Shown here: piece after piece, positions 10,350 through 15,683 of the stretch
How positions within the stretch are numbered: position 1 is the stretch's first letter
Layout: each line of letters starts with the position of its first letter
IMG/VR virus record: IMGVR_UViG_3300049982_000333
Span: 1 to 54,478 of that record
Direction: 5' to 3' (one strand)
From: a virus
Taxonomy: Duplodnaviria > Caudoviricetes
DNA length: 54,478 nucleotides
Translations under genes and position numbers: made by a program
Notes under the pieces: generated by a model
What the model saw: only the letters and a program-made list of their open reading frames with translations
Database searches by the model: none
What the model was told of the DNA's origin: nothing

Positions 10350-10585
10350 GCCTCCTGGACGACCCGTTCGCTCTGCGGCCGCATGATGTGCGGCCGCAGG
10401 TCCACCGATTCGAGGGCGGGCGGGTCACGCTGCTGTGCCCGTACGGGCATCTCATCTGTTCAATGGCGGCTGACGACTGGGCTGCCTCGGGATACGCCGC
10501 ACGTCTTGCCGACCCGGACTACACGGTCGCCTGCGCCAACGGCGCGGTGCCGGTCGAGATGTGGTGGAGGTCCCAGTGCAGCTGA
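10340..10585 (+). CDS. Small hypothetical protein starting MQLSLL (paralog of 9597-9824)
   Basis: Sequence similarity to 9597-9824; 10-bp overlaps at both ends. Confidence 0.7.
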   Translation: MQLSLLDDPFALRPHDVRPQVHRFEGGRVTLLCPYGHLICSMAADDWAASGYAARLADPDYTVACANGAVPVEMWWRSQCS

Positions 10586-11709
10586 CCCTGGACCTCCCCG
10601 CGCTGGACCGCCCCCGGCCCGTGCTGAACCTGCTGGCCTACGACCTGATCGTCATCTGCAGTTCTGCAGGCAAGGACTCGCTCGCACTGCTGGCCTGCGT
10701 CGCCGAGCTCATCGCCGAGCAGGGATACCGCGGCCGCGTGGTCGTGCTGCACAACCACCTCGGCGTCACCCGGTCCGGCGAGCCGGTCGAGTGGTGGGGC
10801 GTCGAAGCGGCCGCCCGCGAGCACGCCGCAGCGTGCGGGTTCGAGTTCGTGGTACGGCGCCGCCCGGGCGGCGGCCTGTGGGACCAGCTGCTCGGCCAGC
10901 GCCGCCGGTGGATGGCGAACAACGCGCGTTGGTGCACCAGCGATCAGAAGACCGGCCCGTCGATGACCTGGGTCACCGAGGCGGTCGCCGAGTTCTGGGA
11001 GCAGCTCGACATGCCCGCGGACCGGCCGGTGGAGGTGCTGTACTGCCTGGGCCTGCGCGGCGAGGAGTCCGCCGGCCGCGCCGGGCAGCCGATCGTCCAG
11101 GTGGACCAACGCCGCTCGTCGGGCAACCGGCGGATCACGCGGTGGCTGCCGATCCGGGACTGGACCATCCGGGACGTGTGGGGGCAGATCGCGGAGTCGG
11201 GTCTGCGGCCGCACGCCGGGTATTCCTGGGGTCTGGGCCGGTTGTCGTGCAGCTTGTGTGTGCTGGCGTCGCTGGAGGATCTGATGCTCGCCGCGGCGCT
11301 GCGCCCGGCGCTGGCGGCCGACTACCTGTGGGCGGAGATCGAGCTGGAGCAGCCGTTCACCGAACGGCTGTCCATGGGGCAGATCCTCGCCGGCCTCGAT
11401 GCCGCCCGGCTGGAAACCGCCGGCGACACCGCGGCGGCCGCCGACGCCACGGTGGTGTTGTACGAGATGGTCCGCGAGTTCCTGGCTGACACGCCCGCGG
11501 CCCGGGGCGAGGGGACCACCAAGTCGGGCAAGCCGCGCCGGCCGTGGACCGATCAGGAGCTGGCCGGCCGGGCGTCCGCGCGCACCGCCGAGATTCTCGC
11601 GGCCGGGCGCCGGGCCGTCGCGCTGGTGGCGGAGGCGGACACGAGTGTGTGGATGCTGGACCCGCTCGACGACCACGCGGCGGCTGTCCTGGCAGGAGCA
11701 GCCGGTTGA
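10576..11709 (+). CDS. PAPS reductase-like PP-loop protein
   Basis: CSSAGKDS PP-loop, RWCTSDQKTGP, GLRGEESAGRA, WLPIRDWT, RLSCSLC. Confidence 0.85.
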   Translation: MQLTLDLPALDRPRPVLNLLAYDLIVICSSAGKDSLALLACVAELIAEQGYRGRVVVLHNHLGVTRSGEPVEWWGVEAAAREHAAACGFEFVVRRRPGGGLWDQLLGQRRRWMANNARWCTSDQKTGPSMTWVTEAVAEFWEQLDMPADRPVEVLYCLGLRGEESAGRAGQPIVQVDQRRSSGNRRITRWLPIRDWTIRDVWGQIAESGLRPHAGYSWGLGRLSCSLCVLASLEDLMLAAALRPALAADYLWAEIELEQPFTERLSMGQILAGLDAARLETAGDTAAAADATVVLYEMVREFLADTPAARGEGTTKSGKPRRPWTDQELAGRASARTAEILAAGRRAVALVAEADTSVWMLDPLDDHAAAVLAGAAG

Positions 11710-11950: not shown

Positions 11951-12008
11951 CCCCCACCCGCCCCCCGGCCTGCGCGGCCGGGGACCCGTCCAGCGGAAGA
12001 AGGCTGTC

Positions 12009-12272
12009 ATGTCCACCACCACCAACGACCGCGCCACCATCGCCCGTGCCGCCCGCGAGCACGGCCTCTCCGTCGCCTACGCCGCAGTGTCCGCCGCCAG
12101 CTACGAGCAGGACGGGAAGTCGCTGACCGTTTCCTACGGCAGCGAGGAGGACCTGGTCGGGGCGTTCTACATCCACGCCCGGGCTGTGCCGGGCCGGCCG
12201 CTCGACTCGGTGGATGAGGTCGTGGCTGCCCTGGACGAGATGGTGCCCCAGAACGACGTCCCGTCCACCTGA
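12009..12272 (+). CDS. Hypothetical protein
   Basis: GAAGAAGG RBS; ORF. Confidence 0.7.
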   Translation: MSTTTNDRATIARAAREHGLSVAYAAVSAASYEQDGKSLTVSYGSEEDLVGAFYIHARAVPGRPLDSVDEVVAALDEMVPQNDVPST

Positions 12273-12330
12273 CCCCCGCGCGGGGGCCAGCCTGCCCGGC
12301 CGGTCCCGCGTCTGAAAGAAGGGCCCTGAC

Positions 12331-12516
12331 ATGGTCGGCCAGCAGCGCACCACCGCGCACTACGAGCGCGACTGCCCAATGTGTGGCGTCAGGATCGTGG
12401 AGGAGCGTGACCGCGAGTACGCACCCATGGTCGGCGCGTTCTGGCACTGCGGCCAGCGTGTGGACATCGGGCGGACGATATACCGCGCGGATGGCACCGC
12501 GATCCACAACCCCTGA
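12331..12516 (+). CDS. Small zinc-ribbon hypothetical protein
   Basis: CPMCG...WHCG; GAAGGG RBS. Confidence 0.55.
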   Translation: MVGQQRTTAHYERDCPMCGVRIVEERDREYAPMVGAFWHCGQRVDIGRTIYRADGTAIHNP

Positions 12517-12538
12517 CCCGACCTCGGTCTGCGCGGCC

Positions 12539-12574
12539 TGGACATCGAACCTTAAGGACCTTAAGGTATTGCTC
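12539..12574 (+). promoter_or_regulatory. Leaderless promoter with tandem palindromic operator CCTTAAGG x2
   Basis: TGGACA-N17-TAAGGT-N7-ATG; CCTTAAGG at 12550-12557 and 12559-12566. Confidence 0.7.
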
Positions 12575-13213
12575 ATGACCTGGAACGAAATCGGCATCGA
12601 ACCGGCCCGGAAGAAGCTCGGCGCCCTCGTGGCCGCCGCCCAGCGCGGACAGACCACCATCCTCACCCGCAACCGGACTCCCGCCGCGATGATCACACCG
12701 GTTCCCCTGCACCTCGCCCTCCGCGACATCAGCGTCGAAGCCATCGACCAGGGCAACTGGCGCGACCAGGCCATCCAGGACTGGATCGAAGCCGCCGCCG
12801 AGGAGGGCTACGGCTTCACCGTCCGGCGCACCCACTACTCCGGCGACGTGCTGGCCGTCCTCGCCGAGGACAAATGGATAGGCGACGAGATCACCCAGGG
12901 CGAGCCGCTCGCCCTGCTCGTCGACCGCACGCACCCGGATGTCGCAGAGGGCGATGGGGACACGCTCGACATCCACCCCGGGCTCATATCCCTACGCGGG
13001 GACCCCGGGCCCGCGGACGCCGTTCAGAGCGACGGCGACATCCCCGACCGGCCCGCCACAGCAGACATGGTCGTGGCCGGCCGATTCCGCGTCCAACGAA
13101 ACGGCTCGGGCGGAATCAGTCTCGACTGGGGCGACGGCGAGATCGACATGGGCGACGACGACGCCGAGCAACTCGCCGCAGCTCTCGCGACCGTACGTCG
13201 CCAGCCGCGATGA
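12575..13213 (+). CDS. Phd/YefM antitoxin-like DNA-binding domain fused to an acidic C-terminal region
   Basis: N-terminus IGIEPARKKLGALVAAAQRGQTTILTRNRTPAAMITPV matches the Phd fold pattern. Confidence 0.7.
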   Translation: MTWNEIGIEPARKKLGALVAAAQRGQTTILTRNRTPAAMITPVPLHLALRDISVEAIDQGNWRDQAIQDWIEAAAEEGYGFTVRRTHYSGDVLAVLAEDKWIGDEITQGEPLALLVDRTHPDVAEGDGDTLDIHPGLISLRGDPGPADAVQSDGDIPDRPATADMVVAGRFRVQRNGSGGISLDWGDGEIDMGDDDAEQLAAALATVRRQPR

Positions 13214-13295
13214 CCACCCGTTGACCCTCGCACCTGGTGATCGGCTAGCATCGACAGTGATCGGCTGATCATGTTGCGGCGCAGCCGATCGCCCC

Positions 13296-13366
13296 GCGCC
13301 GGAGTTGTGACGGCCGCATGCCCCTCTTCCCGAGGGGCGGACCAGGTTCGAGTCCTGGCCGGCGCT
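13296..13366 (+). tRNA. Non-canonical tRNA-Gly(TCC)-like RNA
   Basis: Acceptor GCGCCGG/CCGGCGC plus U73; anticodon arm CCCCT-CTTCCCG-AGGGG; T-arm CCAGG-TTCGAGT-CCTGG; weak D-arm; A8 and C37 deviations; no encoded CCA. Confidence 0.7.
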
Positions 13367-13401
13367 CGGCTTGCACACCGCCAGAGACCCGGGGGCTGGC
13401 T

Positions 13402-14745
13402 ATGTTCCACGGATCTATCCCAGCTCCGCTCCGCTCGATCATCTACGAGCACGCAGGCACCTGGCCAGGCGAGGACATCTACGTCGGCTGCAGCGGCAAC
13501 TTCACGATCGAGCGCGTGCTCCACGCCCGGTTCGGCGCCACCCGCGCCGTCCACGGCAACGACGTCCAGGCTTACTCGAGCGCCCTCGGCTGGTGGCTGG
13601 CCGGCCAGCCCGTCCCCTTCACCCTCCGCGAAGACCACGAGGAAGCCCTCGGCTGGCTCAGGCCCTACCTCGACGACCCCACAGACCTGCTCGCCACCCT
13701 GATGCTCGGCACCCGGTTCCTGCAGTGGGTCGGCAAGACCGGCCCGTACTACCGGCGGATGCTCGCGGCGACGCAAGATCAGTGGCCTCGCATGCACGAC
13801 AAGACCGCGACCAAGCTGCGGAACCTGACCGTACGGCTCGGCTCCTACTTCGCCGGCGACGTCCGCGACTACCTGACGCAGGTGGTGCCCGACACCGCGC
13901 CGGTCGTCATGTTCCCTCCGTTCTACGGCGGAGACTACGAAGCGCAGTTCGCGCCGATCGATGCCGCGTTCGACTGGCCGGCCCCGACGTTCGACGAGCT
14001 CGACGAGGACGGGAAAGAGCAGATCATCGCCCAGGTCCGCGAGCGTCCCAACTGGATGCTCGGCCTGCACATCGAACGGCCCGAGCTGCGCGCCCAGCTC
14101 GCCGGCGTCGTCCAGACCGCCAACCGCGGCCTGCCGATCTACGTGTACGCCGCGTCCGGGCCGCGGCGCATCGTCCGCCCGCACCAGACGACCGCCGGCA
14201 TCCCCATGCCGAAGATCGGTCCCGACGACGTGCTCGGCGACCGCATGGCGCTGCACATGCTCAGCGGCGGCCAGTTCGCCGCGATCCGCTCGCAGTTCAT
14301 GTCCAAGACGATCAAGCCGGGGTCGCCTTTGCTGGCGTGTGGCGTCTCCGTTGACGGGAAGATCGTCGGCGCGTTCGCGTTTCTGCCGCCGAAGTTCGAG
14401 CCGACCTCTGCCTACCTGATGTCGGACTTCCCGGTGTCGTGGAGCCGGTACCGGCGCCTGGCCAAGCTGATCGTCATGGCCGCCAACACCAGGGAGGCGC
14501 AGCTGCTGCTGCAACGCTCGCTGTCCCGCCGGATCACCGACTGGTCGACCACGGCGTTCACCGACAACCCGAACTCGGCGAAGTACGGGCGAGGCATCCC
14601 CGGCGTCAAGCTGGAGAAACGCACGGAGCCCGCGGCTGACGGCGTCCACCGCTACCAGCTGCAGTACGGCGGCCCGATGGGTCAGCGCACACTGGCCGAA
14701 GCGCTCGACCTGTGGAAGCGCAAGCACGGCAAGGACACCAGATGA
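13402..14745 (+). CDS. Putative DNA-modification/antirestriction enzyme: adenine-MTase-like N-terminus plus GNAT(Mom)-like C-terminus
   Basis: DIYVGCSGNF (motif I-like), HGND, VVMFPPFY (degenerate DPPY); C-terminal GVSVDGKIVGAFAF...YLMSDFPV...RLAKLIVM...TTAFTDNPNSAKY resembles a GNAT fold. Confidence 0.6.
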   Translation: MFHGSIPAPLRSIIYEHAGTWPGEDIYVGCSGNFTIERVLHARFGATRAVHGNDVQAYSSALGWWLAGQPVPFTLREDHEEALGWLRPYLDDPTDLLATLMLGTRFLQWVGKTGPYYRRMLAATQDQWPRMHDKTATKLRNLTVRLGSYFAGDVRDYLTQVVPDTAPVVMFPPFYGGDYEAQFAPIDAAFDWPAPTFDELDEDGKEQIIAQVRERPNWMLGLHIERPELRAQLAGVVQTANRGLPIYVYAASGPRRIVRPHQTTAGIPMPKIGPDDVLGDRMALHMLSGGQFAAIRSQFMSKTIKPGSPLLACGVSVDGKIVGAFAFLPPKFEPTSAYLMSDFPVSWSRYRRLAKLIVMAANTREAQLLLQRSLSRRITDWSTTAFTDNPNSAKYGRGIPGVKLEKRTEPAADGVHRYQLQYGGPMGQRTLAEALDLWKRKHGKDTR

Positions 14746-15683
14746 CCGACACCGCCTCGACCACCCCCCGCCTGCGCCCTCGCATCGTGCGTCGTGACCC
14801 CCGTCAGCTCACCCGCCTCCCGGTCAACGCCCGCTTCATGACGAAGGAGAAGTACGACCGGCTGGTCGCCAACATCAAAGACGACGGGTGCCTCACCAGC
14901 GTCCCTCTCGTCTACGGCGCCGGCGAATACCCCGAGGGCCAGGAGCTGATCCTTTCCGGCAACCACCGCTGCGACGCAGCCGTCGACGCCGGCGTGTTCG
15001 AGGTCGACGTCATGCTGATCGAGGACAAGGAGGAGAAGCAGCGGCTCATCGCCCGCCAGCTGTCGCACAACGCCATCGAGGGCGAAGACGACGACGCCAC
15101 CCTCAAGCAGTTGTACGACCAGATCGATGACGTCGACTGGCGGGCCTACTCCGGCCTCGACGACGAGCGGCTGAAGCTGCTGGCCGAGGTTCAACCCGAG
15201 GGACTGTCGGAGGCGAACCTGGATTTCGCCACGGTGCAGCTCATCTTCCTGCCGGCCGAGCTGGAGGCCGCCCGCGCCGCGTTCAACGACGCGAAGTTCG
15301 GCCAGGATGAGACCTGGCTCGCTGCTATCGCCGATTACGAGCCCACCCTTGACGCGCTCAGCTCCACCCACGCCGCCCACCGGGTCACCAACGTGGCCAC
15401 GGCCCTGCACGCCATCCTGGCCATCGTCGAGCGGCACCTGGACGACCTCCAGGCCGGATACACCGGGCCCGACGGCGAGGCGATCCATACGGGGCGCGTG
15501 GGCCTGGAAACCGTGCTCGGAGCGCGTACTCTGCCCGCCGGCGCGGCCGTGACCATCAACAAGGCGATCGCACGCGCGGAAGGGCTGAAGGAGATCCCCC
15601 ACGGTCAGGGCTATCTGCTCCTGGAGCGTCTCGCCGGCGAGTACCTGTCGGGGCCCACCCCGACCCCTGCCGAAGCGCGATAG
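14742..15683 (+). CDS. ParB/Srx-like domain protein
   Basis: NARFM...LVANIKDDGCLTSVPLV...ILSGNHRCDAA...QLSHNAIEGEDD; ATGA coupling to upstream gene. Confidence 0.8.
   Translation: MTDTASTTPRLRPRIVRRDPRQLTRLPVNARFMTKEKYDRLVANIKDDGCLTSVPLVYGAGEYPEGQELILSGNHRCDAAVDAGVFEVDVMLIEDKEEKQRLIARQLSHNAIEGEDDDATLKQLYDQIDDVDWRAYSGLDDERLKLLAEVQPEGLSEANLDFATVQLIFLPAELEAARAAFNDAKFGQDETWLAAIADYEPTLDALSSTHAAHRVTNVATALHAILAIVERHLDDLQAGYTGPDGEAIHTGRVGLETVLGARTLPAGAAVTINKAIARAEGLKEIPHGQGYLLLERLAGEYLSGPTPTPAEAR

Follow-up and report, generated by a model that had tools for sequence, protein, structure and literature searches.

Transfer RNA (tRNA)-dependent modification of DNA has been demonstrated only recently, and for one family, that of the Mom protein of phage Mu. 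Mom has the GNAT fold and moves glycine from Gly-tRNAGly to N6 of adenine in double-stranded DNA, after which the adduct rearranges ('momylation'); it is a single-domain protein with a helix-turn-helix-like insertion (PF25680) that scavenges any host tRNAGly isoacceptor, all three of those of E. coli being accepted, and the portion of the report available to us mentions neither a phage-encoded tRNA nor a Dam-like fusion (PMC13219725). Non-proteogenic (NP) tRNAGly species are also known: in staphylococci NP1-3 act as donors for the pentaglycine bridge made by FmhB, FemA and FemB, a lineage described in the accessible text as confined to that group (PMC7826273). Here we analyze a complete virus record of the Caudoviricetes, IMGVR_UViG_3300049982_000333 (54,478 bp, ~70% G+C; the whole stretch is called the window below), in which a tRNA-Gly-like gene directly precedes a gene for a protein that joins a Dam-like to a GNAT-like domain. 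Comparison of related loci leads us to favor, with some reserve, the reading that the phage encodes in this RNA its own glycyl donor, shielded from translation, for a second and unrelated tRNA-dependent DNA-modifying enzyme. The wider proposition, that a private glycyl carrier RNA, a tRNA-Gly no longer used for decoding yet charged by the host synthetase, exists in phages of at least four bacterial phyla and feeds an independently evolved enzyme made of a catalytically altered Dam domain and a GNAT domain, with a ParB-like partner, seems to us evenly balanced. The three genes concerned are as follows.

13296..13366, + strand: tRNA-Gly(UCC)-like gene, 71 nt including discriminator U73; supported by ARAGORN, by its fold, by a covariance model and by covariation in the family
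13402..14745, + strand: fusion gene, 447 amino acids (aa); Dam-like residues 2-272, GNAT-like residues 280-443; starts 35 nt after the tRNA-like gene
14712..15683, + strand: ParB-like gene, 323 aa; matches phrog_7405 (1.6e-62) and ParB-like PHROGs, and Pfam ParB_N at E 0.18 only; its first 34 nt are shared with the 3' end of the fusion gene

Like Mom, the fusion protein is phage-encoded and has a GNAT fold, and the link to glycine and tRNA that has been shown for Mom is implied here by the adjacent gene; adenine in DNA as the target and a role against restriction are likely further points in common. In contrast to Mom, the GNAT-like domain of the window is joined to a Dam-like domain, a ParB-like gene comes next, and a divergent tRNA-Gly-like gene of its own usually accompanies it. 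The RNA resembles the staphylococcal NP tRNAGly, as far as these are described in the available part of PMC7826273, in its UCC anticodon (in the window), in all of the glycylation determinants, in the A51-U63 pair of the T stem, and in a 5-nt anticodon loop on a 6-bp helix. It differs from them in being phage-encoded, in its acceptor stem (GCGCCGG), in a free position 34, in the TTC kept in the T loop of the window, and in having a Dam-like/GNAT-like partner rather than a Fem protein; the adjoining gene combines PF22555 with PF22559, and no Fem gene lies next to the RNA. The original prediction had entertained three roles for the RNA: a non-ribosomal donor, a decoy for anticodon nucleases or a structured leader. 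The first of these is strongly supported because a Dam-like/GNAT-like gene adjoins the RNA, an arrangement from which we infer its use as a donor.

That positions 13296-13366 encode a tRNA-Gly-like RNA, as had been predicted, agrees with the sequence, with ARAGORN and with the fold. ARAGORN calls one tRNA only in the 54,478-bp record, tRNA-Gly(tcc) at 13296-13367, and at minimum energy the RNA folds into a cloverleaf (-39.6 kcal/mol, z -2.54; equalled by 1 of 200 shuffles). The acceptor stem GCGCCGG/CCGGCGC pairs 13296-13302 with 13359-13365 and is followed by U73 at 13366; the anticodon stem CCCCU/AGGGG carries the loop C-U-UCC-C-G, with U33 present and C37 at 13331; and the T stem CCAGG/CCUGG includes C49-G65, C50-G64 and A51-U63, the last at 13344/13356. 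These three stems are fully paired, in keeping with the prediction, and the D stem consists of three pairs plus the unpaired U10 (13305) and U25 (13319). A8 (13303) and G14 (13309) stand in the core in place of the U8-A14 tertiary pair, and CGG, not CCA, comes after the discriminator, leaving the gene without an encoded CCA. G18-G19 are present and the T loop is canonical (GGUUCGAGUCC), with TTC kept (GGTTCGAG). All of the irregular marks that had been listed for this RNA (A8, G14, U10-U25, C37, A51-U63 and the lack of an encoded CCA) can be read in the sequence. In addition C32 and G38 can pair, giving a predicted anticodon helix of 6-7 bp with a loop of 5 nt, a feature absent from that list.

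The tRNA model RF00005 (gathering threshold 29 bits) was not listed for the window at its gathering score, a result to which speed filters may contribute, nor was it listed at E<=10 on 351 bases, where mascRNA-menRNA (23 bits) and nhaA-II (16.5 bits) were the sole matches. In a control the same model picked up 4 of 18 relatives' loci and 3 of 3 host tRNAs; set against this control, the result for the window places the element far from the tRNA consensus, again with a possible contribution of the speed filters.

To set the RNA in context we used 15 viral contigs with a homologue of the fusion gene, 80 genome loci kept of 134 confirmed, and 15 phage records with the fusion protein, 10 of them from Mycobacterium phages and 5 from Gordonia phages. 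ARAGORN makes a call of the tRNA-Gly type in the flank of 11 of the 15 viral loci and 66 of the 80 genome loci, and in phage Jeon an annotated tRNA-Gly(tcc) lies directly before the fusion homologue. A covariance model built from 67 distinct ARAGORN calls (R1) gave 93 matches in 92 of 99 sources with a fusion homologue (E 1e-16 to 9e-7), which argues that the element is more than a chance resemblance; the gene in the window scores 76.6 bits. Once duplicates between the collections were removed, the RNA was present in 84 of 90 distinct loci, in addition to the window, and the strand of the match was that of the fusion gene except at one locus (L094). Loci of Bacillota, Chloroflexi and Dormiibacterota, with protein identities of 36-45%, still show the linkage. 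It also appears when the search starts from the RNA: in the phage collection the 15 records with an RNA of the Jeon or Jollymon type are exactly the 15 with the fusion protein, and a DNA pattern drawn from the RNA alone found 13 viral stretches, 8 of them tRNA-Gly-like and all 8 with a fusion gene downstream, including 3 contigs that had not been reached through the protein (the other 5 stretches are not tRNA-Gly-like). The ParB-like gene lies directly 3' of the fusion gene in 95 of 98 loci (tblastn), and is kept at ~40% identity in Bacillota and Chloroflexi loci too; the RNA, the fusion protein and the ParB-like protein therefore form a conserved unit. On our reading the element is a functional gene derived from tRNA-Gly and the first member of this phage cassette.

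Several loci show variations on this arrangement. In the Gordonia phages, among them Jollymon and Clawz (L016:2821-2891 and L017:2823-2893), Soos and Sting, the tRNA-like gene is unannotated in five records; in these copies the T loop is degenerate (UAACCAC/UAACCAA) and, in Jollymon, the anticodon loop is CCCCC, yet the acceptor stem and U73 are retained and CCA is encoded. An Oscillospiraceae-type locus (L098) has tandem tRNA-Gly-like genes at 1272-1342 and 1350-1420, with anticodons CCC and ACC, before its fusion gene. A remnant of a phage attachment or integration site (attP) was ruled out as the origin of the element: the gene lies in mid-genome among early genes, its acceptor stem is unlike host tRNA-Gly throughout, and it keeps the same place next to the enzyme gene in prophages and free phages. 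An acceptor 'minihelix' at another locus (L087) was also rejected, being a terminator hairpin followed by a T run. A search of the phage collection with positions 12000-15000 of the window found no near-identical DNA. Among sequencing runs, one soil-metagenome DNA run, which may be its source, is listed as containing the stretch, and no RNA run is listed.

Selection on the RNA was assessed in a model-guided alignment (A3) of 93 rows, 80 of them distinct, scored over the cloverleaf plus two further pairs outside the model, 32:38 and 33:37. Standard pairs fill 97.5% of cells in the 80 distinct sequences, compared with 75.0% in shuffles and 37-43% with the partners slid, the alignment having been fitted to the cloverleaf, which favors those 21 pairs and not 32:38 or 33:37. 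Both-sided change occurs in 19 of 23 pairs, covariation is present in all four helices, and none of 500 shuffles reaches any observed measure. The bases G1, C2, C35, C36, G53, C61, G71, C72 and U73 are invariant (80/80), and G3-C70, which we take to be a glycylation determinant, is kept in 78. The determinants of glycylation given in the accessible part of PMC7826273 are G1-C72, the second acceptor pair (printed there as C2-G70), U73, C35 and C36. The gene is therefore not decaying, and its stems and the determinants for glycyl-tRNA synthetase (GlyRS) are under purifying selection. The original prediction had read the intact stems as a sign of selection and named covariation across homologues as a check; covariation is found, and random stem-breaking changes are not seen. 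Its description of the RNA as chargeable gains support as well, since the GlyRS determinants do not vary among the 80 distinct sequences.

The decoding end of the molecule behaves differently, and selection on its decoding features is relaxed in the phage-type RNAs. Among the 80 distinct sequences position 34 is U in 55, C in 16, A in 8 and G in 1; position 33 is U in 57, C in 18, A in 4 and G in 1; and position 37 is G in 36, A in 31, C in 9 and U in 3, with one gap, making 13 without a purine. The anticodon loop has 7 nt in 75 sequences, 8 nt in 4 and 6 nt in 1, and at least one loop rule is broken in 37 of the 80. The 32:38 pair is standard in 79 (CG 62, GC 10, UG 4, UA 2, GU 1) and of the G:C type in 72. 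For comparison, 18 canonical tRNA-Gly gene copies from 5 host genomes, found with R1, have U8, U33, A37 and A38 without exception and the loops CUUCCAA, UUCCCAA or UUGCCAA.

The T stem separates the two groups further. G49-U65 occurs in 18 of 18 host copies and 1 of 80 phage-type sequences, and G51-C63 in 16 of 18 and 0 of 80; the commonest phage-type T stem is that of the window (C49-G65, C50-G64, A51-U63; 37/80), and G55, that is TGC for TTC in the T loop, occurs in 16 of the 80. In S. aureus, according to the part of PMC7826273 available, the proteogenic tRNAGly carry a set with high affinity for EF-Tu (G49-U65, C50-G64 or U50-A64, G51-C63), and the non-proteogenic ones carry a weak set (A49-U65, U50-A64, A51-U63) together with TGC or TGT for TTC in the T loop, a mark that they share with the G55 sequences of our family. 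The window matches the weak set at its third pair only, A51-U63. A second tRNA-Gly(UCC)-like gene stands beside tRNA-Gly(GCC) in two Streptomyces chromosomes (L104:1501-1572 and L115:1501-1572, in G001 and G002); it has TGC for TTC, an extra T-stem base and A51-U63, and in one copy C32-G38, the same marks as the non-proteogenic tRNAGly of S. aureus, and it may serve the host cell wall or have given rise to the phage type.

These comparisons qualify the earlier judgment that the RNA is poorly suited to translation. It stands at the level of the family, given the drift at 33, 34 and 37, the G:C-type 32:38 pair and the absence of G51-C63, but most of the marks on which it had been based do not bear it out. 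A8 and G14 occur together in 1 of 80 sequences (U8/A14 in 38 and A8/U14 in 12, in a D-loop alignment that is not robust), and U10-U25 occurs in 2, the other carrier being a prophage of Streptosporangium longisporum (L057). An encoded CCA is absent from 43 of the 80, position 74 being C in 79; missing CCA is also common in Actinobacteria, so its absence says little. A8/G14, U10-U25 and the absent CCA are quirks of the lineage that the function tolerates and not a signature of the family.

The same data bear on the simplest alternative, that the RNA is an ordinary elongator tRNA-Gly which supplements GGA/GGG decoding and whose place beside the enzyme gene is a frozen accident. Phages often carry tRNAs, the copy in Jeon is annotated as tRNA-Gly(tcc), and the window gene has a complete cloverleaf with a canonical T loop and G18-G19; moreover in 43 of the 80 sequences the loop still has 7 nt, U33 and a purine at 37, and position 34 is not A. 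We nevertheless consider this explanation unlikely. Position 34 takes all four bases, with the anticodon ACC in 8 sequences, and outside tRNA-Arg A34 is to our knowledge not used in bacteria; 23 sequences lack U33, the loop has 6 or 8 nt in 5, and the T loop of the Gordonia copies is broken. Nor does codon use call for such a tRNA: GGA is the rarest glycine codon in 17 large open reading frames of the window (43/802; GGG 185/802), and this is the only tRNA there. The RNA is like ordinary phage tRNAs in lying within a phage genome and in being called by ARAGORN, and unlike them in being a single tRNA fixed beside one enzyme gene across four phyla, where that neighbor is kept down to 36% protein identity, with decoding features that drift around invariant synthetase determinants.

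The fusion protein provides a further line of evidence. Genes were called from G+C content at third codon positions (GC3) and translation; the RNA gene sits in a 188-nt gap between a gene ending at 13213, whose product has a weakly Phd/YefM-like N-terminus, and the fusion gene starting at 13402. The protein matches PF22555 ('phage DNA adenine methylase-like domain 1', 1.6e-104), PF22559 ('phage GNAT-like domain', 1.4e-56) and phrog_7858 (1.9e-87), and no NCBIfam family; searches of PDB chains by sequence with the fusion and ParB-like proteins gave matches at chance level only. In an AlphaFold2 (AF2) model built from 54 homologues (pLDDT 88.7), the N-terminal domain matches E. coli Dam (2g1p_B, Z 12.4, 193 residues) and T4 Dam (Z 11.9, 190-193 residues); with Dam, T4 Dam and DpnM it shares the fold and the inserted helical region (Z 11.1-12.4, 186-194 residues), the PP-aromatic motif after strand 4 and a Gly-rich first motif. 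The C-terminal domain matches GNAT proteins (best 1y9k_D, Z 11.6; others Z 10.7-11.6), and residues 277-428 of the model match Mu Mom (8bv8_A) with Z 11.0 and rmsd 3.2 over 142 residues. The two domains are fused in all 120 homologues listed except 2 that are truncated and have PF22555 only.

The protein departs from the Dam family in its fused GNAT-like domain and in an invariant FPPF (residues 171-174, after the fourth strand; F171, P172 and F174 in 54/54 homologues, P173 in 53/54) at the place of DPPY, this equivalence being drawn from the position after strand 4 in the model rather than from a residue-level superposition. The first position does not fit the catalytic (D/N/S)PP(Y/F/W) motif of the family, in which the D of the Dam DPPY contacts N6. 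In the GNAT-like domain, the beta4-alpha3 loop has R or H in 54 of 54 homologues where the Q/RxxGxG/A motif has glycine, the motif being placed by position in the model; Q/RxxGxG/A is the coenzyme A-binding motif of GNAT proteins. In some longer homologues of about 700 aa (loci L062 and L069; proteins P0011, P0024 and P0025) a Hint/intein insertion follows about residue 176, and the tRNA-like gene still lies just before the true start of the gene.

On these grounds two further explanations can be weighed. The RNA might be a target of the enzyme, through adenine methylation or glycyl acetylation, or a decoy for GNAT toxins or anticodon nucleases, and structural similarity lends this some plausibility: the rRNA and tRNA adenine methyltransferases Erm38 (Z 13.0) and TrmN (Z 12.1) fit the N-terminal domain no worse than Dam. 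Some GNAT toxins acetylate Gly-tRNAGly, TacT among them (in the accessible part of PMC13219725), and a closed 5-nt loop could resist anticodon nucleases. As a target, however, the RNA would have loops with no conserved adenine except A58 (77/80), and the RNA methyltransferases align over 140-158 residues against 190-193 for Dam and T4 Dam, which include the inserted helical region; Pfam, too, groups the domain with phage DNA adenine methylase-like proteins (1.6e-104). A decoy would leave the linkage to one enzyme and a ParB-like partner unexplained, and we regard the target-or-decoy explanation as improbable. We hold a similarly low opinion of the possibility that the RNA donates glycine to an acceptor other than DNA (a protein, a nucleotide or a cell-wall precursor), with the Dam-like domain a separate methyltransferase. 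The sequence alone leaves the acceptor unfixed, and the available part of PMC13219725 describes tRNA-dependent GNAT-fold transferases that act on peptidoglycan precursors, lipids, proteins and natural products. The constant fusion of the GNAT-like to the Dam-like domain speaks against it, as does the gene that follows in nearly every locus for a ParB-like protein, which is probably DNA-binding. A stand-alone methyltransferase is also made less likely by the replacement of the catalytic D/N of DPPY with an invariant F.

We propose instead that the RNA serves as a glycyl donor for DNA modification, as follows. It would be transcribed with its 5' leader hairpin, trimmed and finished by host RNase P, a 3' nuclease and the CCA-adding enzyme, and charged with glycine by the host GlyRS. 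A T stem that binds EF-Tu weakly and a loop closed by C32-G38 would exclude it from translation. The GNAT-like domain would then take the glycyl group from the Gly-RNA, and the Dam-like domain would bind phage DNA and flip out the target adenine, the product being a Mom-like N6-adenine adduct that shields the phage DNA from restriction. On this proposal the GlyRS determinants are frozen because the RNA is charged by the host synthetase, and the drift at positions 33, 34 and 37, the closed 32:38 and the lack of tight EF-Tu pairs arise because decoding is not needed and the RNA is probably kept from it.

Several observations pull in the other direction. Seven of the 99 sources have no R1 match in flanks of 1.5-3 kb even with filters off, and 6 of the 90 distinct loci keep both protein genes with no such RNA within those flanks: a Kutzneria prophage, a Streptomyces locus, two Bacillaceae, a Chloroflexi metagenome-assembled genome (MAG) and a Selenomonadaceae MAG. 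The RNA would thus be dispensable or replaceable by host tRNA-Gly in these six, which fits an accessory role: host tRNA-Gly could take over, just as it supplies Mom. Conversely, one Streptomyces locus (L126, G002:C1:1392812-1392880) has an R1 match of 57.5 bits and no fusion gene within 1.5 kb. The 43 formally canonical loops already mentioned and the U33 kept by the window itself sit uneasily with an RNA freed from decoding, and a 32:38 pair is drawn for S. aureus tRNAGly of both kinds in the accessible part of PMC7826273, so the pair alone is no proof of non-decoding. On the protein side the structural match to Mom is tied with those to ordinary acetyltransferases, and the GNAT-like domain resembles Mom neither in sequence nor in profile (hhalign probability 0.3 with the family alignment A1). 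The scores of Erm38 and TrmN, which match those of Dam though the alignments span 143-158 residues against 193, make an RNA target possible for the modeled Dam-like domain. A Gly-rich motif and an ND pair are kept at the places where Dam presumably binds S-adenosylmethionine, and the domain could be a genuine methyltransferase, in which case the GNAT domain would have another task. Finally, processing, charging, weak EF-Tu binding, use as a donor, the DNA target and the product are all steps that we infer.

The solitary Streptomyces element has a 4-nt loop, AGCC, and is followed by a RibD_C gene; it may be what is left of a vanished cassette or an RNA with a different partner. As for placing the GNAT-like domain in the Mom family by sequence, this was ruled out by the hhalign result and by the disjoint Pfam families, Mu Mom matching PF25680 only and the domain of the window PF22559 only, even at E<=10.

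A different kind of explanation concerns the position of the RNA within the transcript, for which two further features of the window are relevant.

13221..13251, + strand: promoter-like sequence, TTGACC at 13221-13226, a 19-nt spacer and TAGCAT at 13246-13251; read by eye and putative
13259..13290, + strand: 5' leader hairpin; arms of 9 bp (GATCGGCUG/CAGCCGAUC) around a loop of 14 nt; ends 5 nt before the 5' end of the tRNA-like gene

R1 matches end at most 221 nt upstream of the start codon of the fusion gene in 88 of 90 cases (median 118 nt), and the spacing has two modes. At 26-38 nt (about a third of hits, including the window with 35 nt) no terminator lies between the genes, and the RNA and the enzyme gene are therefore probably co-transcribed. 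At 107-221 nt, the larger group, a stem-loop and then a -10-like motif lie between them. The first mode, and the hairpin that precedes the tRNA-like gene in most clades, would suit a cis-acting processing or stability signal, in which cleavage by RNase P and at the 3' side sets or stabilizes the 5' end of the enzyme mRNA and the released RNA has no role. The second mode points to separate transcripts, and a signal of this kind needs the tRNA shape alone, leaving invariant C35, C36 and U73 amid free loop positions unexplained; we think this explanation very unlikely.

The hairpin itself had been predicted at 13259-13290, and the analysis upholds it: its arms, GATCGGCTG at 13259-13267 and CAGCCGATC at 13282-13290, form 9 bp and fold with -19.5 kcal/mol (z -3.09; 2 of 200 shuffles as good). 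In most clades a hairpin lies directly 5' of the tRNA-like gene with a differing sequence, and the arms differ in matching fashion (GGCTG/CAGCC, GGCCG/CGGCC, GGTCG/CGACC), both observations having been made by eye with no formal score. Transcription from the promoter-like sequence would begin near the base of the hairpin. A strict promoter and terminator scan of 12900-13600 returned nothing, the promoter-like site having been missed by the strict sigma-70 scan because its spacer is 19 nt; in relatives a -10-like GGCTAnnAT or TATCAT lies equally far upstream of the tRNA-like gene.

The cassette can be set against what was known, namely non-proteogenic tRNAGly and tRNA-dependent DNA modification. 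In the literature searched, with subscription journals and the homologue lists in the supplement of PMC13219725 outside its scope, we found no paper on this cassette or on a phage-encoded donor tRNA for DNA modification; the accessible part of PMC5512222 deals with other GNAT families. Within that literature a phage-encoded tRNA-Gly of this kind would be new, as would its coupling to a distinct Dam-like/GNAT-like enzyme with a ParB-like partner and its spread over Actinomycetota, Bacillota, Chloroflexi and Dormiibacterota. The cassette suggests a second, unrelated enzyme family that follows the logic of Mom, a phage that supplies the donor RNA itself, in a form fitted to escape the ribosome, and a natural glycyl carrier kept apart from translation. 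If this is true, the RNA would be the first non-proteinogenic tRNA to be described from a phage genome, and the aminoacylation of DNA would be not a peculiarity of Mu but an anti-restriction strategy in wide use. The proposal is directly testable, as the cassette is present in cultured phages of Mycobacterium smegmatis (among them Jeon and Taptic) and of Gordonia rubripertincta (among them Clawz and Jollymon). It also touches annotation, in which the genes are labeled tRNA-Gly, methyltransferase or hypothetical and the RNA of the Gordonia phages is passed over, and an adenine adduct, if present, could distort nanopore or restriction-based analyses of such phages.

Some minor features of the locus remain to be recorded. 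The sequence GTGATCGGCT occurs twice in the window, at 13236-13245, where it runs into the -10-like TAGCAT, and at 13258-13267, where it forms the 5' arm of the leader hairpin; in relatives GGCTAnnAT stands before the RNA gene and in some also before the enzyme gene, and these repeats and motifs may be a phage promoter or operator. The leader loop contains CGGCGC, for which pairing with the 5' strand of the tRNA as a switch is an idea only. At 10561-11709, 1.7 kb upstream, lies a PAPS-reductase/DndC-like gene (PF01507, 7.3e-08; phrog_424), present in 13 of 98 related loci, which may represent another DNA-modification function.

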